Shown here in pieces: positions 25,005 to 63,792 of a DNA stretch of 64,000 nt. The stretch covers positions 58,482 to 122,481 of the forward strand of contig DHHM01000016.1 of the NCBI GenBank assembly GCA_002403305.1, in the 5' to 3' direction. The stretch comes from Bacteroidales bacterium UBA4772. GTDB lineage: Bacteria; Bacteroidota; Bacteroidia; Bacteroidales; VadinHA17. Each line of letters begins with the position of its first letter. Position 1 is the stretch's first letter. Made by a program: the position numbers and the translations under genes. The notes under the pieces were generated by a model, which was not told the DNA's origin, ran no database searches, and was given only the letters and a program-made list of their open reading frames with translations.

Positions 25005-25739
25005 CTATCTCCCGTCCACGTAGAGGAAGCTGGTACGCTTGACCAGGTATCTCACAACAGCCCAGAAGATGCCGGCTGCCACCAGCAGCGTAACGTACAG
25101 CGGCTCCATGTAAACCCTCCCTGTGACTGCAATATTGCGGACCGTATCGAGTATGGCAAAGACGATGAAGAGATTGGCCACGCTGTTGTGCTCGCGCTTG
25201 AGAACATTCCTGAAAGAGAATGGAAGTGCAGGCTTTTTGTAATGTTTCAGAGAGGGTATAACCGCTTTAACCCTGAAGGCCCAGATGTCATATGTCTCTC
25301 CGAACTTGCGGCGCAGATATTGCTCCTCGGCAAATATTATCCGTTCATAGTAGAGCCAGAAGGCCAGGATAAAAATAATGAGGCACCATACTGACCTCAG
25401 GAACATAACCGGTCCCAGCCACATCAGGAAGTTGCCGAGGTAAAGAGGGTTACGTACTATGGAATAGATGCCCGTTGTATTAAGTTCATCGGCCAGCTGG
25501 TCTATTACATTGCGCCCGGAGGTGTTGCGGGGTACATACCCCACTGTAAATGACCTGACCAGTTCACCTGCGACTGATACCAGGATGCAGATTATCTCCC
25601 AGGTGTAGTTGAAATAGATGACACTGCGGTTTGCTATGAAGAGCCAGATGATTGCCGGAACAAGAATCACCACCGGCAGCCAGCTCCTGCGTCTGAACAA
25701 CCAGTTACCTGATTTTTCAAGTTCATGGACAAGTGACAT
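25005..25739 (-). CDS. isoprenylcysteine carboxyl methyltransferase (ICMT/PEMT-like) family membrane methyltransferase
   Basis: Polytopic protein with SIVRNPLYLGNFLMWLG typical of the family. Start chosen at MSLVHELEK (25739) rather than 25880. Confidence 0.7.
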   Translation of the reverse strand: MSLVHELEKSGNWLFRRRSWLPVVILVPAIIWLFIANRSVIYFNYTWEIICILVSVAGELVRSFTVGYVPRNTSGRNVIDQLADELNTTGIYSIVRNPLYLGNFLMWLGPVMFLRSVWCLIIFILAFWLYYERIIFAEEQYLRRKFGETYDIWAFRVKAVIPSLKHYKKPALPFSFRNVLKREHNSVANLFIVFAILDTVRNIAVTGRVYMEPLYVTLLVAAGIFWAVVRYLVKRTSFLYVDGR

Positions 25740-25887
25740 ACTTACGGAGTTACTCCGTAAAAGTATGAAAAATTCATCATATAATAATTTACTCCATTTG
25801 TATGAAAGCCTGTCCCGGTTTATGGGAGAACCTCCATGTATCAGATTATTATTTACTTGTATTTGTGTGTGATAACACATGGAGGTT

Positions 25888-27117
25888 TCAGAAACTATAC
25901 CTGATCCTTAAGAAGCCAAGATTAAGCTTCGTCTCTGCGGAGGCCAGACGCATGTCAAAATGTTGCCAGAGTAATGAGAAATCGACATTCTCAGCCAGTG
26001 AAACATCCACTGAAGGGCCGGCGTACCATCCATCCATGTCAGGGTACCACATGGCTGAAAGTGATATACTGAGAAGGGGCATCGGCGCCCATGTCACCTG
26101 TCCTACGGCGCTGAATTCCGAGAAGGCAAGGTCTCTGGCCGTCAGGCCCCCCTTATAAAGCACGGTGAAACTGTCGAGTGATAGCGGGCGGTTTGAGTAC
26201 ATCAGCTGCACAATGGCGGTCAGCCTGTCAGAGAAGACCCTGTCAACGCCGGCGGTGGCAATCACGGTGCTCCCTTCATGCTCTGATCCGTCAAAAGGGG
26301 AAAAGAGTGTTGCCTCACCCCTGACGGAAAAGGGCCCGACGGCTCCTGACCATCCGGTGCCGGCGGTGAATAACTCCTCATCGGTCTCTCCGGCAAGAAA
26401 CTGGAGGTCGGTGTTCAGCAGGCTGAAGCGGAAGAGAGCTGCGGCGGTGAACCGGCCCTGGCTGTTGATCTTGACGGCAGCCTCGGCAGCTGACGATGGG
26501 CCGGTGGAATATACCAGCCTGACGGCGTCACTGCCCGGACGCTCAACATAGTCGAAATCAAAAAATGAGTAGGTGTTGAAGATGTCATTGGGGTTCCATA
26601 CCAGCGACTGGCTCCAGTTGATGCGCTGGCGGCCGGCGGTGATCTGCAGCCTGCCCAGCGTGAAGTCAGCGTATGCCCTGTCGATCATCGAATTCAGGAC
26701 ATAGGAGTTGCCGTCGGATATGTTCCATGAAAGGTCAATCCATCCGTCGTCGGTTGCCAGTCCTGACACATAACCGGGATCGAGCGCAATCATGTCGCCG
26801 GTGACAAACCTGTTCCTGATCTCTAAAGCAAAAGTGAACCTACTTCCTGCCCAGGCTTTGAAGTTTAGCCTGTTATGAAGCATGCTGCTGTTGATCCAGG
26901 TTTCTGCAGGCTTTTCGAACATGGCAGTATGGAGCCATGAGGCATACCCCCCGGCAGTGAGGCTGACCATCTTCTCTTTCTCTTCCGGAGGATCCGTGAT
27001 GACGCCGTTCATCTTCAGCGTATCACTCTTAGCAACGCCGGGGTCGATGCCGGTAAGGGCGACAGACTGCAGCATTGCGGCAAACATCATAACTGCCGGA
27101 AGGAGTGTTCGCATCAT
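25888..27117 (-). CDS. predicted outer-membrane beta-barrel protein, last gene of the ABC/LolA_like cluster
   Basis: Signal peptide MMRTLLPAVMMFAAMLQSVA. Alternating beta-strand pattern. C-terminal ...LGFLRIRYSF with a terminal aromatic residue. 4-nt overlap with the ATPase gene. Confidence 0.6.
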   Translation of the reverse strand: MMRTLLPAVMMFAAMLQSVALTGIDPGVAKSDTLKMNGVITDPPEEKEKMVSLTAGGYASWLHTAMFEKPAETWINSSMLHNRLNFKAWAGSRFTFALEIRNRFVTGDMIALDPGYVSGLATDDGWIDLSWNISDGNSYVLNSMIDRAYADFTLGRLQITAGRQRINWSQSLVWNPNDIFNTYSFFDFDYVERPGSDAVRLVYSTGPSSAAEAAVKINSQGRFTAAALFRFSLLNTDLQFLAGETDEELFTAGTGWSGAVGPFSVRGEATLFSPFDGSEHEGSTVIATAGVDRVFSDRLTAIVQLMYSNRPLSLDSFTVLYKGGLTARDLAFSEFSAVGQVTWAPMPLLSISLSAMWYPDMDGWYAGPSVDVSLAENVDFSLLWQHFDMRLASAETKLNLGFLRIRYSF

Positions 27118-27827: not shown

Positions 27828-29255
27828 TTATTCTCCTCTTAATGCTTCAACAGGGTTTAGCTGCAACGCTTTCCTGGCGGGATAGATGGCTGCAACGATC
27901 CCGGTGATCACGATCATTACAGTCAGCATGATAAAGAAATCAGCCCCGATGGTGGGATAGAGATGGGCTGAGTATCCGAATGCCTCAAGGCCCTCCGAGT
28001 ACTTCACCAGGTTGATGCCGGTATGATTGGTAATGGCTATCACAATGGCACTTACTGCCATTCCCGCAAAACCTCCGACTATCGAAAGGAATATAGATTC
28101 AAGCATGATCATGCTGAATACACGGCGACGGTTCATGCCTATGGCTGAGAGCATGCCCAGCTCACGTGTGCGTTCCAGCACCGCCATCAGCATGGTGTTT
28201 ACTATTCCGAAGGCCAGGGCTGCCAGGATTAGCACCATGAAGATGCCATATATCTGGTTTACGTAATCGGCTATCATGGCCAGGTCAGTCTGTATCTGCT
28301 TCCAGCTCATCACCTCCAGTCCGGGGAGCGCTTCCTTTACGGATGCGCTGGCTTTGTCAGTCAGGTCATCATCCTCCAGGCGTGCAATGATGCGGTGGTA
28401 CTGCCCCTCTTCCATCCCTGTGAGGCGGAGCAGTTCATCATGCGGCACAAATACCGAAAAGGCCTCGAAAAAGTCGTTGTTCGTGCGGAAGATGCCGCTG
28501 ATACGGAAGGCAGCCCCTGTCTGTGTGCCGTTTGCATCAAGGAAGGTGAGGATGACCTTTGATCCCTCTCGGTATGACCAGGCTGCCTCCTTGATCCTCA
28601 TCCCGTACAGCTTCCCCTCCTTCTCCGTGAGCAATCCGGAACAGGCCTCCGACAGTTTCTTTTCCGCGGTGAACCTCTGGTTTTCGAGGGGTCTGAGTTT
28701 CTCAACAACGGCTGCAGGAACATCCTCAGCTTCAAGGGCGGTAAAGGATTCTTCCGTGAGGATATACCGGATTATGTAGAGCTCTTTTGCCAGCTTCTCG
28801 CCGATGAAGGCGCTGTTGAGCCTGGTGTCGGTTCCAAAGTAGCTCCCCGTTCCGGGTATGAGACGTTCCTTAAGGGTAAACATCTGCTGCTCCTTTTCAA
28901 CGTCTATGCCCGTGATCTCCACGCCCGCGCTCCCGGCGGAGGTTGAGGCTATGCCCCGTACAATTATCCGTTCGGTGATATGAGTCACTCCGGGTGTCTC
29001 TTCGAGCACCGATACAACCTTTTCAGGCTCGGCTATCACATTGGCTATGTCACTGCTGCCCCTGAATCCGGGGTTGTTTACCTGGATATGAGACAGCTCC
29101 TCGTTGACAGCGGCATCAATGCGCTGAACAATAGAGCTGTTGATGGCAGCCATGGCAAAGACGCCCGCAAAGACGCCCACGGTCACGGCAGCTATCACGG
29201 TCAGGCTCCTGGTCCTGTTCCGCCAGACATTCTTCCATGCAATGGATGTTATCAT
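27828..29255 (-). CDS. FtsX/MacB-type ABC permease (4 TM with a large periplasmic domain)
   Basis: N-terminal WKNVWRNRTRSLTVIAAV TM1, a ~270-aa extracytoplasmic insert, and three C-terminal TM helices of an FtsX domain. Confidence 0.88.
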   Translation of the reverse strand: MITSIAWKNVWRNRTRSLTVIAAVTVGVFAGVFAMAAINSSIVQRIDAAVNEELSHIQVNNPGFRGSSDIANVIAEPEKVVSVLEETPGVTHITERIIVRGIASTSAGSAGVEITGIDVEKEQQMFTLKERLIPGTGSYFGTDTRLNSAFIGEKLAKELYIIRYILTEESFTALEAEDVPAAVVEKLRPLENQRFTAEKKLSEACSGLLTEKEGKLYGMRIKEAAWSYREGSKVILTFLDANGTQTGAAFRISGIFRTNNDFFEAFSVFVPHDELLRLTGMEEGQYHRIIARLEDDDLTDKASASVKEALPGLEVMSWKQIQTDLAMIADYVNQIYGIFMVLILAALAFGIVNTMLMAVLERTRELGMLSAIGMNRRRVFSMIMLESIFLSIVGGFAGMAVSAIVIAITNHTGINLVKYSEGLEAFGYSAHLYPTIGADFFIMLTVMIVITGIVAAIYPARKALQLNPVEALRGE

Positions 29256-29267
29256 TTTAGTCTTCTG

Positions 29268-30683
29268 TTAGGCTCTGATAGCATTTATTATGTTCAATTT
29301 GAATATCCTCCGCACACTGAATGTGATGGCTATGAGCAGTATCAGCAGCACAATCGCTGCCTGCCACAGGTAGTAGGTGTCCGGGAGATGCATGGGCATC
29401 ACCGCTTCAAAGCCGTACTCCTCGTACATCTTTGCCAGCTCCCCGGTGAAGCGCAGGGGCCTTGCATAGCCATAGTAGACAATGGGCAGTGATGCTGCAA
29501 TACCTGCCAACACACCCAGCAATCCGATGAACAGCATCTCCATGCTTACTATGCCGGCCAGCTTACGCTTCTGCATCCCTATAGAGACCAGCATGCCGAA
29601 CTCCCTCCTCCGTTCAGCCATCATCATAAGTACTGTACCGGATACGCCAAAGGCTATCACCAGGTAAAGGATGCCTATCATGATTGCCCCGCTCTTGTTG
29701 TCAGCCTCCATCTGGTTCAGCAGGAGGGCATTCATCTCCTTCCAGTTGCGTATTACCAGCCCGTCATTGCAGGAGGCGGACAGCCGCTGTTGCGTTTGCA
29801 GAAGCTCCCTGTCATCTGTATCGCTTATACTTATTATGGCCGAGGTGACCATTTCGGGTGCAGCATAGAGATACTGTGCATCTGCCAGGGTGATGTAAAC
29901 AAATGCATTGTCAATCTCGGGGTTTGGCATGCTCACTATACCCTTTATCACGAAGAGTCCGGCTGCGGATACCCCGTGATAGCCCTGTCCCATCACCACC
30001 AGGGTGTCTCCAACGTCTGCGCTGAGATAACGCGACAGTCCGTATCCTATAACCGCCCGGCCGGAATCTGCCGAAGTGAGGTAACGGTTGTCGAGTGATG
30101 CATACTTCCTGAAGAGAGGCATCACTGCTGCTGAATCATCATCGCCTATGCCGAGGTCAGAGATGAGGCTCTTTTCATCGGTCCAGGCCTCACCGGAAAA
30201 TACATCGACCAGCTTAGCGGTGCGGGACGGCAGGTTTTCTCCTTTAAGAGCTTCGGTTGCATCAGGAGTAAGGCGGTATTTTATGAGACGGTTCTTTATG
30301 TTCAGCGTCTTCTGCTCATTGTCGGGATCCATGCCGATCACCATCACACCCCGGGTGCGACTCCCGGCAGCTGCCAGCGCGAACGATTCCAGCTTTGGAA
30401 TAACCCCCGTTACATTGGGGTCTGCCTCTATTATGTCAGTCAGCGACTGCTCAGGAACAAACCCGTTGTCAAGATTTGATTCATCAAGGTAGTCACTGTG
30501 CTGAAGCTGCAGGTAACCGGAGTATGATTCGATGACATCCCTGTACATCTTTTCGTATGTACCCAGCTGAAACGACCTCATCACCAGTGCAAAGAAGACT
30601 GCAAAGAATACCGAGGCTGCCGTTATGAGGGTCCTCCTTTTGTTTCGCCATAGATTTCTCCAGGCAAGCTGATAGTTCTTCAT
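29268..30683 (-). CDS. FtsX/MacB-type ABC permease, paralogue of the preceding gene
   Basis: WRNLWRNKRRTLITAASV TM1, a large periplasmic insert, and a C-terminal FtsX domain. Preceded by cassette copy B. Confidence 0.88.
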   Translation of the reverse strand: MKNYQLAWRNLWRNKRRTLITAASVFFAVFFALVMRSFQLGTYEKMYRDVIESYSGYLQLQHSDYLDESNLDNGFVPEQSLTDIIEADPNVTGVIPKLESFALAAAGSRTRGVMVIGMDPDNEQKTLNIKNRLIKYRLTPDATEALKGENLPSRTAKLVDVFSGEAWTDEKSLISDLGIGDDDSAAVMPLFRKYASLDNRYLTSADSGRAVIGYGLSRYLSADVGDTLVVMGQGYHGVSAAGLFVIKGIVSMPNPEIDNAFVYITLADAQYLYAAPEMVTSAIISISDTDDRELLQTQQRLSASCNDGLVIRNWKEMNALLLNQMEADNKSGAIMIGILYLVIAFGVSGTVLMMMAERRREFGMLVSIGMQKRKLAGIVSMEMLFIGLLGVLAGIAASLPIVYYGYARPLRFTGELAKMYEEYGFEAVMPMHLPDTYYLWQAAIVLLILLIAITFSVRRIFKLNIINAIRA

Positions 30684-30776
30684 TCGATTATCTTATTATT
30701 TCATTGGTCGAAAGAAACTTACATGTAGTAAAAACAATCATGTCCAATTGTGAGTTTCTGTCCATGTAAGTTTCAT
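30684..30776 (-). repeat. palindromic cassette copy B (93 nt), intercistronic
   Basis: Minus-strand reading: ATGAAACTTACATGGACAGAAACTCACAATTGGACATGATTGTTTTTACTACATGTAAGTTTCTTTCGACCAATGAAATAATAAGATAATCGA, then ATG at 30683. Confidence 0.88.
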
Positions 30777-30798
30777 GCCAGTGGATATTTGATGGACA

Positions 30799-31569
30799 CT
30801 ATCTGATGGTCTTCATATTCTGCTGTGAGAAGAAGCTCTCCTCAATCTTTACATTGAATTTTACCTCTGTTATATTAAGGATGGTCTTGCGGCCCGGCTC
30901 CTCGGCGGGGATCAGTTCAATGGTGGTGGGTATAAACCTTCCGTCCATTGTCCTGAGATCACTGCCCCGCTCCGTTCTGACCAGGTAGCCGTCCTCATCA
31001 TAGAGCTCGGCTTTCAGGACAATAAACTCATTTTTATCAACCCACCACAGCTGGTGACTCCAGAGAACGTCGGCATCATCCTTTGCCGTCAGCCTGATCT
31101 TGTGGCACATGCGGCCGTCGATCTCCTCCTCTCCCTCGAAAGTGTGGGTGTAGTCTTCCACCACGGAGGACTCCCTGAGGATATCATCATTGGTGTAGTC
31201 TGACCCCATCCAGCCCTGCGACATCATTGAGGGCGGCAGCTTGATAAGCCTGTTGATGGCGGGATTCCAGCTCCACATCTCCGTGCCCCGTTTGAGAAAT
31301 GTCTGTCCCTTTTCGCGCGCCGGCGCGGTGATTAGCGTGAGGGCATAGTCATCTTCCAGGGCCCACGATTTGAATTCTATTGTGCGCTGCCATGAGGAGC
31401 GCACGATGGTCATGCTCATGACGCTGTAGCCCGAGAGCTCACCGTTGAATTTCTCGTCTGTTTTTTTGATTATTTCTTTGGCGCTCAGCTGCTGCGCGGT
31501 GGCCGGCCCGCTTGCCGGCAGCAGGAGGAGCATTGCGATGCCTGTGATTATCTGACCTGTTAGTTTCAT
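30799..31569 (-). CDS. LolA_like periplasmic protein (outer membrane lipoprotein-sorting protein family)
   Basis: Signal peptide MKLTGQIITGIAMLLLLPASGPATAQ. IKLPPSMMSQGWMGSDYTNDDILRESS matches my recollection of the LolA_like family. Confidence 0.8.
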   Translation of the reverse strand: MKLTGQIITGIAMLLLLPASGPATAQQLSAKEIIKKTDEKFNGELSGYSVMSMTIVRSSWQRTIEFKSWALEDDYALTLITAPAREKGQTFLKRGTEMWSWNPAINRLIKLPPSMMSQGWMGSDYTNDDILRESSVVEDYTHTFEGEEEIDGRMCHKIRLTAKDDADVLWSHQLWWVDKNEFIVLKAELYDEDGYLVRTERGSDLRTMDGRFIPTTIELIPAEEPGRKTILNITEVKFNVKIEESFFSQQNMKTIR

Positions 31570-31665
31570 TAGATTATTTGTTTATTATTATATTGGACTA
31601 ATGGAACTTGCATGAAGTTTACAGTCATTTCCCCGGGAGGAGTTGCTGCTCATACATGGTTTCAT
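31570..31665 (-). repeat. palindromic cassette copy C (96 nt, left arm degenerate)
   Basis: Minus-strand reading: ATGAAACCATGTATGAGCAGCAACTCCTCCCGGGGAAATGACTGTAAACTTCATGCAAGTTCCATTAGTCCAATATAATAATAAACAAATAATCTA, then ATG at 31569. Its head ATG overlaps the stop of the upstream ORF (ATGA). Confidence 0.8.
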
Positions 31666-32057
31666 CTGTATCTTTTTATCAGTGCGTCTGTTACCTTTTC
31701 ATAATATTCACCCTGATACTGTTCTTCAGAGAATATGGAAGTGATGGCAAACCCCTTGATCGCATTTATAAACATGAGCAGATCGGTCATCGGGTTATAG
31801 TCCGGACCGGCGTTCTCTCCCTTCTTCCGGAAGTATTCCACCAGGAGGCTCATCATGCTTTCGGTGTATTCCCTGAAAGGTCTTCCTGATATTGATAAGG
31901 ACCCTGACTCCTCCCCGAATAGTTTCTCATAGACTCCGGGCTGTATCATTATTCTGAAGAGCAGTTTCCGGAACTGCCTCTTCTCATGAAGCACTTTAAA
32001 TACTTTCCGGATTTGCAGAAAGTGTTGAAAATAAAATATATGTAGTAATATTAACAT
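31662..32057 (-). pseudogene. ORF of unknown function, possibly the C-terminal remnant of a TetR-like regulator (no HTH present)
   Basis: 131-aa helical ORF in the position where such clusters often carry a regulator. The frame is closed by in-frame stops at 32070-32072 and 32088-32090, so no DNA-binding N-terminus can be encoded. The family assignment is a guess. Confidence 0.3.
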
Positions 32058-32143: not shown

Positions 32144-33346
32144 TCAGGGTGTAAGCAAAAAATCGACCAGATTTTGCCATTTTATACCATTTCGCACGTT
32201 GCCATAATGCCTGTCCATGGACAGTACAAGTTTGGGATAATTGTCCCGCACCGTTTCAAGAGCACCAAATTCTCTTTCAATAACAGCCTCATCTGAGAGC
32301 ATATAGGCAACTTGTATGTAAGTTTTGGTGTTACCTTTTACTGCAATAAAATCGATCTCACGTTCGTATAGCTTGCCAATATGAACTTTAAACCCTCGTG
32401 CAACCAGTTCAAGGTAAACAATGTTTTCAAGCTTCCCGGATATGTCCTGAAACTTATCACCCAGCAAGGAATACATAAATCCGATATCACCAAGATAGTA
32501 TTTGTCGTAAAGCTCCAGCTGTCTCTTCCCTTTTATATCGAACCTATTCACCTTGTGTGCCATGTAAGCCTGAGAAAGCCAATGCAGATAATTCTGCACC
32601 GTATCAGCAGAAAATTTTAGGTGTTGGGATTTAAAATAGTTGCTTATACCTTTGGCAGTAGTTATATTGCCAATATTATCAGCAATATAGGCGGTTATCC
32701 TTTCAAGCATAGCTACATCACGTACCTGGTTCCGGGACACAACATCCTTTAGAAGAATGGTGCTGTATATGGCGCTTATATACTGACTGATAACTTCATC
32801 AGCAAATTCCATTCTATGAATCCCCGGGAAACCGCCATATTTCATGAAAAGGGCAAACTCATCATCCCTTTCAGCCCCTGATTTGTTTCTGAATGTAAGA
32901 AATTCACTGAATACAAGAGTATTCATCTTAAATTCAATATACCTCCCTGTCAAAAGTGTTGCCAGGTCAGATGCCAGTAAATCCGCATCGGACCCTGTGA
33001 TGTATATATCTGCAATCTCATCCGCAAAAAAGCCGGCAATTGCCTTCTCCCATTGTTCAATTTCCTGAACCTCATCAACAAATAGGTACTTCCTGGCATT
33101 GTTTTTAATTAAATTTTTGGTTACATAGACATGAAGATCCATATAGGTCGTGATGAAGTCAAATTCCAATGAATCTTTGTTGATATACAGTATATCAGCA
33201 GGGTCTACTCCTTCAGTTTCCAGCTCATTAATCAGCAGTTTCAGAAAGGTGCTTTTGCCACATCTTCTTATCCCGGTGATTACTTTTATTACAGGTTTAT
33301 CGATGAATGGTGCTATTCGATCAAGATACATGTCTCTCCTAATCAT
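32144..33346 (-). CDS. AAA+ ATPase (AAA_14 N-domain with DUF4143-type C-domain)
   Basis: Walker A ITGIRRCGKSTFLK and Walker B LFVDEVQEI. Start at MIRRDMYLDRIAP (33346); the longer ORF to 33595 is a non-homologous extension. The gene is visibly AT-richer than its flanks. Confidence 0.85.
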   Translation of the reverse strand: MIRRDMYLDRIAPFIDKPVIKVITGIRRCGKSTFLKLLINELETEGVDPADILYINKDSLEFDFITTYMDLHVYVTKNLIKNNARKYLFVDEVQEIEQWEKAIAGFFADEIADIYITGSDADLLASDLATLLTGRYIEFKMNTLVFSEFLTFRNKSGAERDDEFALFMKYGGFPGIHRMEFADEVISQYISAIYSTILLKDVVSRNQVRDVAMLERITAYIADNIGNITTAKGISNYFKSQHLKFSADTVQNYLHWLSQAYMAHKVNRFDIKGKRQLELYDKYYLGDIGFMYSLLGDKFQDISGKLENIVYLELVARGFKVHIGKLYEREIDFIAVKGNTKTYIQVAYMLSDEAVIEREFGALETVRDNYPKLVLSMDRHYGNVRNGIKWQNLVDFLLTP

Positions 33347-33604
33347 TTTCGAGTATATTACGATTATTACAAATATATGCAAATATTTCGACTGTATTCG
33401 TTTTATTGAAGTTTTTCTATGATTGAGGAGAGTCTGTTCACGGCAGGTGCGGTGGAGGTAACGCTGTCCCATGCCGTTCCGCGGGCTCCCGGCAAGTACT
33501 CCTCGCAGCAGATGACGTGGGTTAAGAGATCTTGCGTTGATATGTATCCATATTAAATAGAGTACAAGTACAGTTATTAAAAGTATTGTCAGCAACCCTG
33601 ACCT

Positions 33605-39384: not shown

Positions 39385-39411
39385 TGTAACATTTGCCGTC
39401 TTACGGCCGTC
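39385..39411 (+). promoter_or_regulatory. candidate ECF-type autoregulatory promoter TGTAAC-N17-CGTC
   Basis: TGTAAC at 39385-39390, a 17-nt spacer, and CGTC at 39408-39411, 27 nt upstream of the sigma-factor ATG. AAC...CGT architecture is typical of many ECF promoters. Confidence 0.5.
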
Positions 39412-39437
39412 TTTATGTTGTCAGTGCATTGACCTGA

Positions 39438-39923
39438 ATGACCGTAAAAGAGTACAATAACGCCGTCAGGGAGTTCGGTGACCATGTTTACCGGTTCATC
39501 TTCCGCAGTATCAAGGACAGCCACAGGGCTGACGATATCGTACAGGACAGCTACGAAAAGCTGTGGCGGAACGTTACTGAAATAGAGTACTGCGCCGTGA
39601 AATCATGGCTCTTTTCAACGGCATACAACAGGATGATTGATGTTATCAGGAAAGACTCCAGGCTGGTAGGCGTGGAGTATTACGATGACAGTTCACTATA
39701 TGCGGAGGAGAACGGCAGCGACCTTAACGAGGTGCTGCACAGGGCCCTGGAGACCCTTCCGCCGGCCCAGCGATCGGTAATTCTCCTGCGTGATTACGAA
39801 GGGTACAGCTATAAGGAGATAGCTGACATCACCGCACTCTCTGAGGCACAAGTCAAGACCTACATCTTCAGGGGACGTGTGGCTCTCAGGAACTATCTGG
39901 TAAAGACATCGGTATGGCAATGA
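39438..39923 (+). CDS. ECF (sigma-70 family group 4) RNA polymerase sigma factor
   Basis: 161 aa. Region 2 (DIVQDSYEKLW...W Lfstaynrmid) and region 4 (LPPAQRSVILLRDYEGYSYKEIADITALSEAQVKTYIFRGR). Confidence 0.9.
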   Translation: MTVKEYNNAVREFGDHVYRFIFRSIKDSHRADDIVQDSYEKLWRNVTEIEYCAVKSWLFSTAYNRMIDVIRKDSRLVGVEYYDDSSLYAEENGSDLNEVLHRALETLPPAQRSVILLRDYEGYSYKEIADITALSEAQVKTYIFRGRVALRNYLVKTSVWQ

Positions 39924-41071: not shown

Positions 41072-41113
41072 GTGTAACTTTCCGGGTGCATTGATCGTCC
41101 CACCAATAAACAA

Positions 41114-41183
41114 CAGAAACTTGCATGAGCAGAAACTCACAGCAGTAAATGACTACTACATTCATGCAGGTTCCATTCGACCA
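41114..41183 (+). repeat. palindromic cassette copy D1 (70 nt short form, lacks A/T tail)
   Basis: cAGAAACTTGCATGAGCAGAAACTCACAGCAGTAAATGACTACTACATTCATGCAGGTTCCATTCGACCA. A tail-like remnant CCACCAATAAACAACA lies just upstream. Confidence 0.85.
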
Positions 41184-41277
41184 GTGAAACTTGCATGAGC
41201 AGGAACTCGCAACAGGTTTTGATTGTCAAATTCATGTAAGTTCCATTCGACCAATAAAATAATAATTATATAACCGA
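41184..41277 (+). repeat. palindromic cassette copy D2 (94 nt)
   Basis: GTGAAACTTGCATGAGCAGGAACTCGCAACAGGTTTTGATTGTCAAATTCATGTAAGTTCCATTCGACCAATAAAATAATAATTATATAACCGA, then ATGAAATAA. A duplicated 25-nt tail follows, then the gene ATG at 41303. Confidence 0.9.
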
Positions 41278-41302
41278 ATGAAATAATAATTAAATAAACG
41301 CC

Positions 41303-42403
41303 ATGAAGAGAACATTGTTAACAGTCACTGTGATAATTGCGCTGATCCTTCCGGTGCAGGCACAGGAGAAGGAAGAAAAACTGAAGGAGTTGGAGAAACT
41401 TGAGGCGGAGGCAGGTACGGTCACTCCCCCTGACACCCTGAAAGCGAAAACGGACATCAGTGCAGCAGAGGCAGACACCCTGAGGCAGGAGGCAGAAGCG
41501 CTGCCGGCAGAGGAGGGAAACCTCCCGGCAGAGGAGGCGGAGGAGATAATGATTGAAGAGCCGGAATCTCCGGCTCTTCCCGGCGATGGTGAAGACACTG
41601 CCCGCATTACAATAGGTGAAATAGTCACCGTGGAGGACACGGGTGACGAGACAGTGATAAGGATCGGGAAGAAGGCTGTCAGGATTCTGACAGACGGTGA
41701 CAACGCGGAGATCCGGATGGAAGATGAGGAAGAAGATGCAGATGAAGAGTTTTCCACTCCCGGCAGACGCTTGTTTGAGGGCCACCTCGGAGGCATTGAG
41801 ATCGGCTTCAACAGCTATTCCACCGGACAGTGGGGCCGTAATCCGGAAATGGCCGATGACTATCTCGACCTGAACACGGCAAAATCTTCCAATTTCAATA
41901 TCATCTCACCGCCAGTGAGCCTGGGACTGTCGCGCCACATCGGTATCGTGTCGTCCCTGGGTGTCAGCTTCAACAACTACCGCTTTGACAACAACAACTC
42001 GGTCATCCCGGGAGACGGCGGGATCGTGGAACCATATTATCCTGCTGATGGAATAAATTATGAAAAGAGCAAGCTTGCTACCGTCTACGGCGTGCTGCCC
42101 GTAATCCTGGAGGCACAGATACCCGTGACATACAGTAGCACCCTGAACATCGGGGCGGGCATCATCGGGGCAGTGAAGCTGGGATCACATACCAAGGTGG
42201 TCTACTACAGCGACGGAAAGCAGAAGGATAAGAACCATGACGACTTCAGCCTCAATGTGCTGAGATACGGAGTCACAGCACGGGCAGGGTACGAGATGGT
42301 ACAGGTGTACGGCACCTGCTACCTGTCACAGATGTTCGAAAAGGGCAAAGGACCGGAACTCTATCCCTTTGAGGTCGGCATAGCCCTGACCATCAACGAC
42401 TGA
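41303..42403 (+). CDS. outer-membrane beta-barrel protein with an acidic low-complexity N-terminal region
   Basis: Signal peptide MKRTLLTVTVIIALILPVQAQ. A Glu/Ala-rich ~130-aa segment, then an alternating beta-strand C-terminal half. Lies downstream of the sigma/anti-sigma pair. Confidence 0.6.
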   Translation: MKRTLLTVTVIIALILPVQAQEKEEKLKELEKLEAEAGTVTPPDTLKAKTDISAAEADTLRQEAEALPAEEGNLPAEEAEEIMIEEPESPALPGDGEDTARITIGEIVTVEDTGDETVIRIGKKAVRILTDGDNAEIRMEDEEEDADEEFSTPGRRLFEGHLGGIEIGFNSYSTGQWGRNPEMADDYLDLNTAKSSNFNIISPPVSLGLSRHIGIVSSLGVSFNNYRFDNNNSVIPGDGGIVEPYYPADGINYEKSKLATVYGVLPVILEAQIPVTYSSTLNIGAGIIGAVKLGSHTKVVYYSDGKQKDKNHDDFSLNVLRYGVTARAGYEMVQVYGTCYLSQMFEKGKGPELYPFEVGIALTIND

Positions 42404-42484: not shown

Positions 42485-42652
42485 TTTGGCGCAACAGCGC
42501 GGTCAGCAGAGTGTTGTACATTTGGCACAACAGCACATTCAGAAGAGCGGGCCGCAGGGCGTTGTATATTTGGAACAACAGCGCATTCAGAAGAGCGGGC
42601 CGCAGGGCGTTGAAGATTTGACGCAGCGGCACGTGTCGCAGAGCGTTGAAAC
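42485..42652. repeat. tandem array of four 36/48-bp units upstream of pepE
   Basis: Units begin with TTTGG/TTTGA at 42485 (36 bp), 42521 (48 bp), 42569 (48 bp) and 42617 (36 bp). The 48-bp units carry a 12-nt insert CGGGCCGCAGGG. Confidence 0.9.
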
Positions 42653-56824: not shown

Positions 56825-57277
56825 ATGAGGATAGTAATACAAAGAGTGAAGCGGGCCTCTGTAACCATTGAAGGGAAGATACATTCTTCCATCGGGATGG
56901 GGCTGCTGGTGCTTACCGGCATTGAGGAGGCCGACACTACCGATGATGTTGAGTGGCTGGCAGCCAAGGCGGTTAACCTGCGGCTTTTCGATGACAGCAA
57001 AGGGGTGATGAACCTCTCTGCCGCTGAGACCGGAAGTGAGATAATGATTGTCAGCCAGTTTACCCTGCATGCCTCCACCAGGAAAGGCAACAGGCCCTCA
57101 TATATCAGGGCCGCCAGGCCGGACAGGGCGATCCCGATATACGAGGAGTTCATTATGCGCATCGGTGAGCTCCTTGGACACAAACCGGAAACGGGAATAT
57201 TTGGTGCCATGATGGAAATTGAACTGGTTAATGATGGGCCGGTAACGATAATTATAGACAGCAAGCAGAGGGAATGA
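56825..57277 (+). CDS. dtd: D-aminoacyl-tRNA deacylase
   Basis: MRIVIQRVKRASVTIEG...SQFTLHA...GNRPSY...NDGPVTI. Start at 56825. Confidence 0.93.
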   Translation: MRIVIQRVKRASVTIEGKIHSSIGMGLLVLTGIEEADTTDDVEWLAAKAVNLRLFDDSKGVMNLSAAETGSEIMIVSQFTLHASTRKGNRPSYIRAARPDRAIPIYEEFIMRIGELLGHKPETGIFGAMMEIELVNDGPVTIIIDSKQRE

Positions 57278-58650
57278 CGGAGAAAGAGTTTAAAAGATCA
57301 GTGCTGACGGTCACTGCCTTCGCCTCATTTCTGACCCCTTTTATGGGTTCGGCGGTCAACCTGGCACTCCCCTCCATCGGTGAGGAGTTCAGTCTCAATG
57401 CCGTCACCCTCAACTGGATTGTCAGCAGCTACATGCTTACCACCTCCATGCTGCTCCTTCCTGCAGGAAGGGCCGGGGATATACTGGGACGCAGGAAGAT
57501 CTTCACCGCGGGGATGATTGTTTTCACTTTCTCGATGATACTTCTGACCTTCACCCCCGGCATACGATGGCTTATCGCTGTAAGGATACTGCAGGGGGTG
57601 GGAGGAGCCATGATGTTCGGCACAAACATGGCGATACTGACCTCGGTCTTCCCTCCCGGAGAGAGAGGCAGGGCCATGGGAATAAATGTCACGGCAGTAT
57701 ATGCCGGCCTTGCCTCAGGACCCTTTCTGGGAGGGTTGCTGACGCGCTATCTGGGCTGGAGAAGCATCTTCGCCTTTCTAATACCCATGGGAATTATCAG
57801 CCTGATACTTATCCGTACCCGCATGAAGAAAGAATGGGCTGATGCCAGGGGCGAGAGTTTCGACTGGCAGGGATCGGTGGTCTACGGTCTGGCGATGGCG
57901 GCACTGATGTACGGCTTCTCCAAACTGCCCTCGCCGGCGGGGTGGATCATAACAGGCGCCGGCCTGTTGCTCATGCCGCTCTTCATCATGAGGGAGAAGA
58001 GAGCAGTTCACCCGCTGTTCGACATAACACTCATCTCCAGAAACAGGGTCTTTGCCTTTTCAAGCCTCGCCGCACTTATCCATTATGCCGCCACCAGTGC
58101 CGTAGGCTTCTTTCTGAGCCTGTTCCTGCAGTATATCAAGGATATGGGACCCCGTGACGCGGGGTTCGTGCTCATGTCATTGCCTGTCACAATGACACTG
58201 ATATCACCTCTTGCCGGCAAGCTGTCAGACCATCATAACCCGGGAGTGCTCGCCTCCATAGGCATGGCCATATCCACGGCCGGACTGATATTACTCTGCT
58301 TTCTTACCGAACAGACTTCGATTCTGTTCATTGTTGTGGTACTGCTGATTATGGGAGCCGGATTCTCGCTCTTCTCATCACCAAATTCAAATGCCATAAT
58401 GAGCTCCGTTGAGAAAAGACAGCTGGGAAATGCCTCAGGCATGCTTGGCACCATGAGAAACGTGGGCCAGACATTCAGTATGGCAATAGCACTGATGCTG
58501 CTGGCACTCTACATGGGTCAGGAAAAGATCGGCCCGGCAAACTACCCTCAGCTGATGAATTCGATGAAGAGCGCGTTTATCGTCTTCTCCGTCCTCTGCT
58601 TAGCGGGTGTTTTCGCCTCCCTGGCGCGAAATAAAAATCTTCGGCGGTAG
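57274..58650 (+). CDS. MFS transporter, 14-TMS DHA2 (EmrB/QacA)-like
   Basis: 458 aa with ~14 hydrophobic segments and the GRAGDILGRRKIF motif A. 4-nt overlap with dtd. Confidence 0.9.
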   Translation: MTEKEFKRSVLTVTAFASFLTPFMGSAVNLALPSIGEEFSLNAVTLNWIVSSYMLTTSMLLLPAGRAGDILGRRKIFTAGMIVFTFSMILLTFTPGIRWLIAVRILQGVGGAMMFGTNMAILTSVFPPGERGRAMGINVTAVYAGLASGPFLGGLLTRYLGWRSIFAFLIPMGIISLILIRTRMKKEWADARGESFDWQGSVVYGLAMAALMYGFSKLPSPAGWIITGAGLLLMPLFIMREKRAVHPLFDITLISRNRVFAFSSLAALIHYAATSAVGFFLSLFLQYIKDMGPRDAGFVLMSLPVTMTLISPLAGKLSDHHNPGVLASIGMAISTAGLILLCFLTEQTSILFIVVVLLIMGAGFSLFSSPNSNAIMSSVEKRQLGNASGMLGTMRNVGQTFSMAIALMLLALYMGQEKIGPANYPQLMNSMKSAFIVFSVLCLAGVFASLARNKNLRR

Positions 58651-58680
58651 CCTTAACTCTACTTTTTGTTTGCTTTTCAT

Positions 58681-58774
58681 TCGGTTATTTAATTATTATT
58701 TTATTGGTCAAATGGAACTTACATGAATTTGACAATCAATACCTGTTGCGAGTTCCTGCTCATGCAAGTTTCAT
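58681..58774 (-). repeat. palindromic cassette copy E2 (94 nt)
   Basis: Minus-strand reading: ATGAAACTTGCATGAGCAGGAACTCGCAACAGGTATTGATTGTCAAATTCATGTAAGTTCCATTTGACCAATAAAATAATAATTAAATAACCGA, then ATG at 58680..58678. Near-identical to D2. Confidence 0.9.
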
Positions 58775-58845
58775 TGGTCGAATGGAACTTACATGGAGTA
58801 AAACAATCATAACCTTTTGCGAGTTGCTGCTCATGTAAGTTTCAT
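58775..58845 (-). repeat. palindromic cassette copy E1 (71 nt short form)
   Basis: Minus-strand reading: ATGAAACTTACATGAGCAGCAACTCGCAAAAGGTTATGATTGTTTTACTCCATGTAAGTTCCATTCGACCA. Confidence 0.88.
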
Positions 58846-58917
58846 TAAAAACAATTAAATTGACCCCTGTTTGCCTGAGGGCAGATAATGTCTGTTTTTT
58901 ATTACATATCATTAATT

Positions 58918-59790
58918 ATGACTAAATTATACAAGAAACTACTGAACCACGACTACTCACCCGGGGAGATGGGTGAATGCATTACCGAGGCTCAAAGGAT
59001 GACCACTTCAGTGGAGAGAGGCCCTCTTTTGAAAGATATTTTTTCCATGATTGACCTGACAAGCCTCAACACCTCCGACAGCGAAGGAACAATAGGCAGT
59101 TTTGCAGAGAGAGCAGCTTCATTCCGTTACAGTTTCAGCGGGATAAACAATGTTGCCGCCCTCTGCGTCTATCCCAACTTTATCACCGTTGCCCGCCAGG
59201 GCCTGAGCGACTGCGGGATCAGGCTTGCTGCCGTCGCGGCATCCTTTCCCACCTCCCAGACATTCCTGGAGATCAAGACTCTGGAGACGGCACTGGCAGT
59301 AAGGATGGGCGCTGATGAGGTTGATGTGGTCATTCCCGTGGGAACATTCCTTGAAGGGGCATACGAAAAGGTGATAGATGAACTGAAGGCTGTAAGGCAG
59401 GCAGCAGGAGAGGCTACCCTCAAGATAATACTGGAAACGGGGCTACTCAAGGACGAAAGGAACATCTACAGGGCATCTATAATCGCCATGGATACCGGTG
59501 CTGATTTTATCAAGACCTCAACGGGAAAGAGCCCTGTCTCCGCAACACCCGAGGCAGCATGGGTGATGTGCCGTGCAATACGTGACTACTGGAATGAGAC
59601 CGGCATAATGGTTGGCTTTAAGCCCGCAGGCGGGATTGTCACTCCTGATGATGCCCTGGTCTATTATTTCATCGTCAGGAACATGCTTGGAGAAAAATGG
59701 CTGACGGCTGAATACTTCAGGATCGGCGCATCAAGACTTGCCAATAACATACTGGCAGAACTGTACCCCGGCAAGCCTGCCTTCTTTTAA
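58918..59790 (+). CDS. deoC: deoxyribose-phosphate aldolase (long form)
   Basis: DLTSLN..., EVDVVIPVG, LKIILETG, ADFIKTSTGK (Schiff-base lysine). Start at MTKLYKK (58918). Confidence 0.9.
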   Translation: MTKLYKKLLNHDYSPGEMGECITEAQRMTTSVERGPLLKDIFSMIDLTSLNTSDSEGTIGSFAERAASFRYSFSGINNVAALCVYPNFITVARQGLSDCGIRLAAVAASFPTSQTFLEIKTLETALAVRMGADEVDVVIPVGTFLEGAYEKVIDELKAVRQAAGEATLKIILETGLLKDERNIYRASIIAMDTGADFIKTSTGKSPVSATPEAAWVMCRAIRDYWNETGIMVGFKPAGGIVTPDDALVYYFIVRNMLGEKWLTAEYFRIGASRLANNILAELYPGKPAFF

Positions 59791-61919: not shown

Positions 61920-61933
61920 TGAAAACGGTCTTT

Positions 61934-62026
61934 ATGAACTTGCAAAAGCGGGGACTCTCAATAGGAGATGACGTTAAAACTTCATGCAAGTTCAATCCGG
62001 CCAGTAAAATAAATATTTATACACGA
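61934..62026 (+). repeat. palindromic cassette copy F1 (93 nt, degenerate)
   Basis: ATGAACTTGCAAAAGCGGGGACTCTCAATAGGAGATGACGTTAAAACTTCATGCAAGTTCAATCCGGCCAGTAAAATAAATATTTATACACGA. Confidence 0.8.
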
Positions 62027-62121
62027 ATGAAACTTACAAGAGCAGTAACTTACAATAGGTAATGATTATTTCTCTTCATGTAAGTTCCATTAGACCAATA
62101 AAATAACAATCAAGTAATCTA
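62027..62121 (+). repeat. palindromic cassette copy F2 (95 nt), ends at the ATG of the S41 protease gene
   Basis: ATGAAACTTACAAGAGCAGTAACTTACAATAGGTAATGATTATTTCTCTTCATGTAAGTTCCATTAGACCAATAAAATAACAATCAAGTAATCTA, then ATG at 62122. Confidence 0.9.
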
Positions 62122-63792
62122 ATGAAAAGAGGCAACAGAAAGAGAATATTGCTGATACCGGTGATGGCACTGGCAGCTATGCTTGCGTTGGGGTTTCTGA
62201 TGGGCGGACAGGAGAGCAAGGACTTCAAGCTCACCAGGAATCTTGATATATATATATCGCTTTTCAGGGAGCTGAACGCTTTCTATGTAGATGAGATAGA
62301 CCCTGAAAAGCTTGTCACAAGAAGCATCACAGCGATGCTTTCAACCCTCGATCCATATACTGTCTACTACCCAGAAGAGGAGCGCGAGGATCTCGATTTC
62401 CTCACCACCGGGAAATACGGCGGTTTTGGCTCCCTGATAAGAAAGTCAGGTGACTATATCGTTGTCACCAATGTCTACCGGGGGTTCCCTGCCGACAAGA
62501 ACGGCATCAGGCCGGGTGACATGATGCTTAGTATTGACGGCACATCACTCAAGGGAGTATCCTCCGAGAAGGCTTCTGACATGCTCAAGGGCGAGCCGGG
62601 GACTGCGGCTGAGATAACCTTCAGACGCAACGGGGAAGAGTTTGCGAAAACCATAAAGAGAGAGAGGATATCTATCTCTGCAGTGCCCTATTACGGGATG
62701 ATCGATGATAACACCGGATATATCCGGTTCACCAATTTCACACAAAACTGTATCGCTGAGGTGAGGGATGCTGTCACCGACCTGAAGGATAACCTTGGTG
62801 CCACTGATCTGATACTGGACCTCAGGGGCAATCCCGGTGGCCTTGTCAATGAGGCCGTGGAGATTGTGAATCTGTTTGTTAGGCCCGGACAGGAGGTGGT
62901 GAGCACCAGGGGAAGGGCAAAACAGTATGATGCCGTTTTCCGTACATCCAGAACCCCGGTGGCCCCCGATATGCCGGTGGTGGTCCTGATAAACAGAGGC
63001 TCTGCATCCGCTTCGGAGATAGTGGCCGGGGCATTGCAGGACCTTGATCGCGGGATCATCGTCGGAGAGAGGTCCTACGGCAAGGGGCTGGTGCAGGTGG
63101 CCAGGCCCCTGAGCTACAAGGCACAGCTTAAGGTGACCACGGCAAAATACTATATCCCCAGCGGCAGATGCATACAGGCTGTCGATTTCTCCCACAGGAA
63201 CGAAGACGGCAGCGTAGGACAGATACCGGATTCGCTGATAAAGACATTCACCACCAGGAATGGCAGGCCGGTGAAGGACGGCGGTGGCATCATACCTGAC
63301 CTGCAGGTGGAGTCAGACATGTTCAGCCGCTTCACCAGCGAACTCTATGTTCAGAACATGGTCTTTGACTTCGCCACGGAATACTACTGGTCGAAACCGC
63401 AGCCATCGTCACTCGACAGCCTGAAGGTGACCGACAGTGACCTGGAGCGTTTTGAACAGTTCCTCCGGGATCGCAATTTCTCATACAGCACAGGTTCGGA
63501 ACTTATGCTTGAGGAGCTCGCCTCCGCGGCCAGAGAAGAGAATCTATATGACGCCAACAGCAGTGAGATTGAGAATCTGAAGGCCGGTCTGAGCCATTCG
63601 CTCGACAGGGATATGACTGCACAGAAGAGCGATATCATTGAGCTGCTGGAGTCGGAACTGGCAGGCAGGTATTTCTACGATGCCGGTTCGGTGAGATATT
63701 CGCTGAAACGCGACAGACAGGTGCAGGCAGCAATGGAAATAGCAGGAGACAGGATGCGCTACAACAACCTGCTGAAAGGTGCAGGAGAGTAA
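62122..63792 (+). CDS. S41 family C-terminal processing peptidase with PDZ domain
   Basis: N-terminal membrane/signal anchor, PDZ (GIRPGDMMLSIDG), LDLRGNPGG, LINRGSASASEIVAGALQD. Confidence 0.92.
   Translation: MKRGNRKRILLIPVMALAAMLALGFLMGGQESKDFKLTRNLDIYISLFRELNAFYVDEIDPEKLVTRSITAMLSTLDPYTVYYPEEEREDLDFLTTGKYGGFGSLIRKSGDYIVVTNVYRGFPADKNGIRPGDMMLSIDGTSLKGVSSEKASDMLKGEPGTAAEITFRRNGEEFAKTIKRERISISAVPYYGMIDDNTGYIRFTNFTQNCIAEVRDAVTDLKDNLGATDLILDLRGNPGGLVNEAVEIVNLFVRPGQEVVSTRGRAKQYDAVFRTSRTPVAPDMPVVVLINRGSASASEIVAGALQDLDRGIIVGERSYGKGLVQVARPLSYKAQLKVTTAKYYIPSGRCIQAVDFSHRNEDGSVGQIPDSLIKTFTTRNGRPVKDGGGIIPDLQVESDMFSRFTSELYVQNMVFDFATEYYWSKPQPSSLDSLKVTDSDLERFEQFLRDRNFSYSTGSELMLEELASAAREENLYDANSSEIENLKAGLSHSLDRDMTAQKSDIIELLESELAGRYFYDAGSVRYSLKRDRQVQAAMEIAGDRMRYNNLLKGAGE

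Follow-up and report, generated by a model that had tools for sequence, protein, structure and literature searches.

The two repeat copies on either side of the LolA_like gene, designated B and C, belong to a family of small structured mobile repeats of the MITE/REP kind. They are passengers in the operon in which they lie, and their position reflects target choice. We consider it likely that the repeat is a MITE/REPIN-like element that targets the hexamer ATGAAA and regenerates the start codon at which it inserts. In the surviving copies, this target is usually the start codon of a gene together with the following Lys codon. No account of the repeat was found in the literature, where it was looked for by sequence and by concept, nor did we find a description of any small mobile repeat that has the start codon as its effective target and regenerates that codon.

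Anatomy of the unit and its copies in the window

The unit is non-coding, has a length of approximately 93-96 nt and occurs in arrays of one or two. On the sense strand, an n'n'n'ATGAAAC head is followed by the left arm (TTRCATG), a small variable hairpin, an A-rich stretch, the right arm (CATGYAAG), TTCCATnnn, ACCAAT with approximately 25 AU-rich nucleotides, and an n'n'n'ATGAAA tail. The arms form helix P1 (CTTRCATG/CATGYAAG), a hairpin of 8-15 bp. The small inner hairpin P2 is of the GAGC-loop-GCTC type and has weaker support than P1 and P3. In P3, GTTCCATnnn pairs with the tail n'n'n'ATGAAA, including the tail ATG (columns 106-108). Classical terminal inverted repeats are absent: a direct copy of ATGAAA stands at each end, the inverted arms of 12-15 nt are internal, and the right arm lies approximately 35 nt before the 3' end of the unit. 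The head opens a four-codon ORF, MKL(A/T)-stop, in 90 of 97 heads, and the tail hexamer is ATGAAA in 80 of 114 units.

The window, which is the whole 64-kb stretch of DNA that was analysed, contains 11 units at 7 loci. Ten of them, at 6 loci, are clear, and the eleventh (25785-25894) is diverged and lies in the same operon as B and C. A 15-mer motif of the right arm has 18 matches in the window vs 1.5 expected, and a 17-mer motif of the left arm has nine vs 0.24 expected; no shuffle reached either count. The window copies were scored with a covariance model built from 75 units.

The genes of the operon are arranged on the minus strand in the order 131-aa ORF (31662-32057), LolA_like (30799-31569; PF17131, E = 1.7e-55), two FtsX permeases, ABC ATPase, a 409-aa protein and a PEMT/ICMT-like protein. 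The first permease gene, of the FtsX/MacB type, occupies 29268-30683, and the second occupies 27828-29255. What the earlier note called a five-gene cluster is actually longer, since it comprises LolA_like, both FtsX genes, the ABC ATPase gene, the 409-aa gene and the PEMT/ICMT gene. The 131-aa ORF preceding copy C is a truncated remnant of a TetR-family regulator, which has 210 aa in relatives and whose 5' part is missing here.

Copy B (30678-30776, minus strand; 82.6 bits, E = 1.5e-12) lies between the LolA_like stop codon (30799-30801) and the FtsX start ATG (30683-30681), which are separated by a gap of 115 nt (30684-30798). Along the minus strand, 22 nt of native spacer precede the head ATGAAA (30776-30771) and a 93-nt insert (30770-30678), so that the earlier figure of 93 of the 115 nt is reproduced. 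The left arm reaches to 30763, the right arm occupies 30725-30714, and an AU-rich loop leads to the tail ATGAAG (30683-30678), with which the FtsX permease starts. P3 of copy B is partly degenerate (GTTTCTTTCG) and has decayed relative to the JARGFQ ortholog; the ortholog in L023 is intact. Copy C (31564-31665, minus strand; 70.3 bits, E = 2.3e-10) is located directly upstream of LolA_like, as had been noticed, and its head ATG (31665-31663) overlaps the TGA (31664-31662) of the preceding ORF. Its 96-nt segment (31659-31564) has a degenerate left arm, a right arm at 31614-31600 and a tail ATGAAA (31569-31564) that constitutes the LolA_like start. The same spacing of B and C is found in six independent metagenome assemblies of the source organism, which occurs in at least 36 assembly blocks.

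The diverged third copy of the operon (25785-25894, minus strand; 33.7 bits, E = 8e-4 with the entire window searched) lies between the 409-aa gene, whose stop is at 25888-25890, and the PEMT/ICMT gene, and its arms, AAACCTCCATG/CATGGAGGTTC, carry compensatory changes. Gene callers are split on the length of the PEMT/ICMT protein (291 vs 244 aa). Because the start of the 291-aa ORF (25880) is inside the left arm of the repeat, the real start is probably at 25739. As this call shows, annotators of these MAGs should bear in mind that an insertion can be the source of start codons, uORFs and "intercistronic regulators".

The remaining loci described here are tandem pairs. In the plus-strand array at 212-413 (units 212-309 and 307-413; 70.1 and 107.6 bits), the tail ATG (405-407) opens a 76-aa lipoprotein-like ORF (405-635), and a TAATTTTG box lies upstream of the array at approximately 190-197. 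The plus-strand array at 61931-62130 consists of a degenerate unit (61931-62023, 37.8 bits) and a second one (62024-62130, 102.2 bits), with an S41 peptidase starting at its tail ATG (62122). A third plus-strand array, at 41111-41286 (units 41111-41178 and 41181-41286; 41.1 and 102.7 bits), is situated in the 5' leader that precedes the OMP_b-brl_2 gene; its tail ATGAAATAA (41278-41286) is not the start of that gene, which is at 41303. The pair at 58672-58848 (minus strand; 58.6 and 103.3 bits) is an orphan that lies antisense between the MFS (57274-58650) and DeoC (58888-59790) genes, both on the plus strand. Its tail ATG (58680-58678) opens an ORF of only 26 codons, and this locus has one unit in three sister species.

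Of the 112 collected arrays, 64 have an ORF of 60 aa or more that begins at the first tail ATG vs approximately 5% expected, and the count rises once inserted hairpins are allowed for; in approximately 40% of the arrays there is no long ORF at this ATG. The 77 downstream proteins are diverse and include PyrH (UMP kinase), CysS, response regulators, ABC proteins, peptidases, OMPs and lipoproteins, with signal-peptide- or TM-like N-termini in 37. This placement pattern fits an ATGAAA target combined with loss of intragenic insertions, and not a regulon. An envelope-stress regulon was also considered and rejected, because the downstream genes are not restricted to the envelope and the motif in question is part of the repeat.

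That motif, GAAAC-N16-TCRCA, occurs seven times in the window vs 0.2 expected, an ECF sigma/anti-sigma pair adjoins the 41111 array, and several genes that follow units in the window have envelope proteins as products. All three observations would suit a unit that acts as an internal promoter (e.g., of the ECF type TGAAAC-N16-TCACA) or as a palindromic operator for a regulator of envelope genes. We regard this as very improbable. The motif belongs to the repeat itself, and a different one, TGTAAC-N17-CGTC, precedes both the neighbouring sigma gene and the 41111 array, immediately upstream of which we located GTAAC-N17-CGTC, an ECF-type motif (41073-41100). Elsewhere, the downstream genes include pyrH, cysS and genes of cytoplasmic enzymes, and the helices covary in sequence, which is unexpected for a protein-binding site. 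The Bacteroidetes -7 box TAnnTTTG is present on the sense strand of none of the 114 units, and native promoter-like boxes remain upstream of the insertion point in empty and filled alleles alike, which makes the internal promoter offered by the earlier note unlikely. The reading of the left arm as an ECF-sigma or sigma-54 promoter was discarded as well, since it is a repeat motif and the putative promoter of the local ECF sigma differs from it.

Empty and filled sites, distribution and age

Six independent sets of orthologous empty and filled sites were obtained, including sets from sister species at 86-94% nucleotide identity. The insert lies exactly at an ATGAAA-like start codon and has ATGAAA at both ends, and all inserts are in one orientation. 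At the S41 peptidase site, WOYX is empty (gtctttATGAAGAGA; ...TAACTTTGcgaaaacagtctttATGAAGAGAAGC), there is one unit in JAVEXM, and there are two each in the window and JARGFQ. The inserts have an ATG(A)A head and, at the other end, an ATGAAA tail leading on into the same ORF, and a promoter-like box is found upstream of the insertion point in the empty and filled alleles. At the site of a LytTR response regulator, the window is empty (gagATGCAAAAAATAAGA) and WOYX carries a unit between the kinase and regulator genes. Three further orthologous sites show the same pattern, and one of these three has the canonical unit, a 67-nt short variant or nothing, depending on the species. Target duplication is indistinguishable here from a target that matches the end of the element, as the flanking ATGAAA is always the same sequence. 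In a single comparison, precise deletion between ATGAAA copies could mimic an empty site.

The sites of B and C were compared at 80 orthologous LolA_like loci, with 65-90% amino-acid identity. Both are empty in approximately 70 relatives. Relatives with a LolA_like protein 65-86% identical to that of the window lack both copies, and in place of B they have a spacer of approximately 30 nt followed by ATGAAAGAT. The spacer between LolA_like and FtsX in relatives is mostly -4 to approximately 40 nt, and in the closest ones it measures 27-34 nt and is followed by ATGAAAGAYTATCAGCT. Among the relatives compared, the B site is filled only in L112, whose LolA_like is 90% identical. The C site is empty in several of the closest relatives, in which the 210-aa TetR gene ends with ...TACAGATGAAAG... 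and its TGA overlaps the LolA_like ATG (ATGA). The head of copy C overlaps a stop codon because this old TetR/LolA_like overlap was left behind by the insert, which moved the LolA_like start 96 nt downstream. In L189 (69% identical), a very different unit occupies the same LolA_like start, through an independent insertion. Because the same sites are empty in relatives, B and C are insertions specific to the lineage of the window. The spacing and coupling of TetR, LolA_like and FtsX in this operon changed recently, by insertions and not by design.

Array size varies among species at three loci, and at the S41 locus the window and JARGFQ have exchanged unit tails, a sign of recombination among units. 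Such variation could be expected if the units were not mobile but arose through local tandem duplication and leader recombination, with empty sites produced by deletion between ATGAAA repeats. This explanation is hardly credible, as copies are present at many unlinked genes with no flanking homology beyond ATGAAA. Different subfamilies also occupy the same start codon depending on the lineage (L050 vs L053/L071, and L189). The B and C sites are filled only in the lineage of the window, and deletion cannot mimic empty sites in approximately 70 relatives.

The distribution of the family was surveyed by scanning GTDB species representatives with a whole-unit pattern, for which approximately one chance match is expected. 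Among the matches listed, the repeat was found in more than 105 stretches from more than 25 Bacteroidales MAGs, with many copies per genome. It has dispersed across a clade of uncultured Bacteroidales. The labels of the carrier MAGs include Rikenellaceae, "Rikenella sp.", "Sphingobacteriia" and Bacteroidetes. Two pattern matches in Clostridia (L090 and L106) were dismissed as chance, of which about one is expected, and contigs labelled Nealsonbacteria and Balneolales (L028 and L034) are near-identical short contigs that are probably mis-binned. No copies were detected on the plasmids, phages or IMG/VR contigs searched. Copies within a genome are 70-79% identical, barely above the identity between genomes, and several are kept at orthologous sites across the species with 86-94% nucleotide identity. 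The copies are old, because identity within genomes is only slightly higher than that between genomes, and a recent burst is without support. Long retention of the structure in the copies could also reflect selection in place.

Folding of the unit

The secondary structure was assessed on a MAFFT alignment of 75 units. Most loci had been collected by an exact-arm pattern, which inflates the conservation of the arms. Paired cells amounted to 86% vs 18-38% with slid partners, and the covariation score was reached by none of 500 shuffles. P1 is paired in 99%, and its variable pair 13-63 is GC in 38 units, AU in 28, GU in 7 and other in 2. In P3, columns 73-105 are UA in 50, CG in 16 and UG in 3, and columns 74-104 are CG in 28, AU in 24 and UA in 10. 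The three variable bases after GTTCCAT pair with the downstream partner in 87-93% of the units, and with the bases before the head in 28-60%. In 114 units recovered by the model, in an alignment that leans towards the structure because it was fitted to the covariance model, 10 pairs change on both sides (reached by 3 of 500 shuffles) and 31 extra pair types occur (reached by 0 of 500).

The most convincing cases of structure are diverged members, in which different letters preserve the helices. The L189 unit has CCCACATG/CATGTGGG (its arms are also given as GAAACCCACATG/CATGTGGGTTCC, with the inner hairpin TGTAT-TGC-ATACA), the window copy at 25785 has CCTCCATG/CATGGAGG, and the JAVEXM unit retains the helix as ACCTGC/GCAGGT. 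RNAalifold favours an extended P1. In this fold, GTTCCAT is the partner of the head ATGAAAC, and P3 is excluded. P1 and P3 are predicted together in several units under both RNA and DNA energy models; as RNA, both are predicted for copy C, for the unit at 62024 and for B's ortholog in L023. Counts of G-U vs A-C pairs (10 vs 1 in P1; 13 vs 11 in the P3 pairs) single out neither a strand nor RNA over DNA.

These properties can be accommodated by a selected, cis-acting 5'-leader RNA. In it, a P1 hairpin located at the 5' end or close to it would serve stabilisation or processing, and P3 would compete with the extended P1 (AUGAAAC/GUUCCAU) and thereby sequester the start codon. The MKL(A/T) mini-ORF would tune the fold, and B and C would set the ratio of carrier to permease. 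P1 and P3 covary, P3 takes in the AUG, and the incompatibility of P3 with the extended P1 provides two alternative folds; in the three folds named above, both helices form together. The stop of the mini-ORF is also well kept, some copies are retained across species, and promoter-like boxes just upstream of several first units suggest that the units are probably transcribed. We nevertheless consider a selected leader unlikely. The downstream genes have no function or pathway in common, and there are orphan and antisense copies, such as that at 58672-58848, besides the arrays without a long ORF at the first tail. The element is missing from the same operon in approximately 70 relatives and is polymorphic among sister species, and P3 has decayed in copy B of the window compared with its ortholog. 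Furthermore, the asymmetry between G-U and A-C pairs identifies no RNA strand, DNA folding gives the same helices, and Rfam has no match, with zero hits at gathering score over the whole window. Rfam scans by E-value returned only chance hits of the miRNA type (E >= 0.1).

Three other readings were eliminated. A CRISPR-like array and a leader-peptide attenuator were ruled out on anatomy. For an integron attC site, ATGAAAC and GTTCCAT do not fit the RYYYAAC/GTTRRRY cores, and the copies are scattered before housekeeping genes instead of being arrayed.

Proposed insertion at start codons and comparison with known systems

The comparisons show that the element integrates in one orientation at ATGAAA or near variants (ATGAAG, ATGCAA). 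The old ATGAAA stays at the head and opens the mini-ORF, and the identical ATGAAA of the 3' end becomes the new in-frame start behind the AU-rich leader of the element itself. The gene stays translatable because this 3' ATGAAA supplies an in-frame start. With their own terminal copies of ATGAAA, the units would become targets in turn, giving rise to tandem arrays of one or two units. P1 and P3 may provide the fold on which mobilisation in single-stranded form depends, and pairing of GTTCCAT with the flanking or terminal ATGAAA may define both the target and the ends. Because GTTCCAT can pair with either ATGAAA, recognition by base pairing, as in single-strand HUH transposition (IS200/IS605/RAYT-type), is suggested. 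Copy C landed on the LolA_like start when it overlapped the TetR stop (ATGA), and B on the FtsX start 22 nt past the LolA_like stop. A tblastn search with E. coli RayT over the window and the collected loci (approximately 1 Mb) gave no transposase, and no head/tail pair flanks an ORF in the collected loci as an autonomous version would.

The earlier note had taken the placement of an element between cistrons as a sign of a role in this operon, by way of mRNA processing or stability or re-initiation of translation. The element is real and has features able to affect mRNA or translation, namely P1 as a stable hairpin between the cistrons, P3 pairing with the downstream start and the four-codon mini-ORF at the head, whose ATG retains its native upstream context. 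Its position is not specific to the operon, as the family inserts at ATGAAA starts of unrelated genes and approximately 70 relatives lack the copies; the placement by itself does not indicate such a role. The predicted P3 could mask the start codons of FtsX and LolA_like. Effects on transcript stability or translation are plausible, and they would be a by-product of insertion and not its reason.

We also considered a start-codon-homing mobile leader that inserts between the native 5' UTR and the start codon of a gene, finds its site by pairing GTTCCAT with ATGAAA (HUH-type or RNA-guided) and imposes a shared control module. The module would consist of the four-codon uORF, the 5' hairpin and the hairpin masking the start codon, and it would be imposed on dozens of unrelated genes. 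We hold this to be a doubtful extension. Bacteroidota initiate translation without Shine-Dalgarno pairing, and if the homing leader were true, it would be a portable post-transcriptional regulator in these SD-less bacteria. A small mobile repeat that regenerates the start codon it targets would have an unusual way, for a selfish element, of avoiding harm while it occupies a gene's most sensitive part. The natural pairs of filled and empty alleles are suitable for tests of the effects of structured leaders and uORFs on Bacteroidota translation.

The repeat resembles classical MITEs in being short, non-coding, multicopy and polymorphic for presence at orthologous sites, but it has no terminal inverted repeats. 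In Geobacter uraniireducens, the MITE named Chunjie lies within an operon whose structure is undisturbed, according to the title of Chen et al. 2008 (cited in PMC10969869); it has terminal inverted repeats and direct repeats, a variable size of 178-235 bp and many intergenic copies, as far as the account in PMC10969869 goes. Chunjie is likewise a small repeat within an operon, but it is not reported there to target start codons, and the 2024 review of prokaryotic MITEs never mentions "start codon" (PMC10969869). The Rickettsia palindromic elements are palindromic mobile repeats that are tolerated in coding sequences with the frame kept (PMC10969869). They insert within ORFs and add a peptide, whereas the repeat described here lies outside the ORF and duplicates only its first two codons. 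The Correia elements of Neisseria and the ERIC/BOX-type repeats are likewise transcribed and structured, lie near gene starts and can change the processing and expression of mRNA, and the BOX type shares a modular or tandem build. In contrast to our repeat, they either insert at TA, which is duplicated, or have no defined target; they contain promoters or IHF sites and regenerate no start codon.

REP/REPIN sequences are similar in structure: they are short and non-coding, fold into a hairpin through two inverted arms, show compensatory changes, and are present in many copies per genome, often in transcribed operon spacers and in tandem or clustered arrangements. However, REPINs are mostly located at 3' ends or between genes and have no fixed target, whereas the present repeat is found exactly on ATGAAA starts, takes up the start codon in a second hairpin and is accompanied by no RAYT in approximately 1 Mb of loci. 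From the IS200/IS605 derivatives (PATEs) it differs in that its target is a hexamer, made up of the start and Lys codons, and in that a single guide-like GTTCCAT could serve both ends; no TnpA was found for it, and we infer the mechanism. Like these derivatives, it lacks terminal inverted repeats, has subterminal hairpins conserved in structure and inserts in a specific orientation beside a short sequence that matches the other end of the element, and its cleavage site may also be recognised by internal guide base pairing. The closest known logic for the mobilisation of the repeat would be that of the IS200/IS605 and RAYT/REPIN elements.

ECF-type motifs and repeats around the OMP gene

The same ECF-type motif, TGTAAC-N17-CGTC, occurs twice on the plus strand, at 39385-39412 upstream of the ECF sigma gene (39438-39923) and at 41073-41100 upstream of the array of two tandem ~95-nt mobile repeat units (41111-41286) that precedes the OMP_b-brl_2 gene (start 41303). 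Because one motif lies before both the sigma gene and the array, the sequence suggests that the sigma factor may drive both its own gene and the array, which would then be transcribed as a leader of the OMP gene. The interval that separates the OMP_b-brl_2 and S51 peptidase genes contains three tandem 48-nt repeats (42496-42639, plus strand; 67-100% identity to the reference copy), each of which includes TTGGCACAACAGCAC.

Gene boundaries at the two ends of the LolA_like operon

Upstream of the LolA_like operon, a TetR-family regulator (31662-32057, minus strand) is truncated at its 5' end, retains 131 of 210 aa and lacks the HTH. The truncation adjoins an AAA_14/DUF4143 ATPase gene (32144-33595, minus strand), which is situated in a 40% GC patch. 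This arrangement looks like an insertion that took out the repressor of the operon.

For the PEMT/ICMT gene of the same operon, the ATG of the 291-aa ORF falls inside a decayed repeat unit (25785-25894, minus strand), within its left arm. In other assemblies the annotated product is 244 aa long and begins at 25739, and translation probably initiates there. Immediately upstream of this position is a perfect palindrome, TTACGGAGTAACTCCGTAA.

Nested segments and a second repeat class

In other MAGs, many repeat units contain a GC-rich mini-hairpin of ~22-30 nt (cccgcaaaggcggggcaggc or ctgcctgccggcaggcaggc) nested after the GTTCC of the right arm, between GTTCC and AT (loci L022, L029, L032, L036, L044, L046, L048, L052, L062, L063, L100, and L104). 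The units of one MAG, JBKBSF, share an additional internal segment, ACCGAAGCTCGACGCAGTC. Both the mini-hairpins and this segment look like second-order insertions or markers of subfamilies. L028 and L034 are two short contigs that flank the same repeat unit at 96-97% identity. One was assigned to Candidatus Nealsonbacteria and the other to Balneolales. Mis-binning of Bacteroidales DNA from the same sediment is the probable cause.

A second, different class of intergenic repeat consists of heptamer runs (e.g., CAGTCGG or GGTTACT) followed by reverse-complement runs, which form long hairpins. It is found at 1224-1279 in the window and in the LolA_like-FtsX spacers of L139, L149-L151, L160, and L181. 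In several relatives, heptamer-run hairpins lie in the spacer that is occupied in the window by a ~95-nt unit (copy B, 30678-30776, minus strand).
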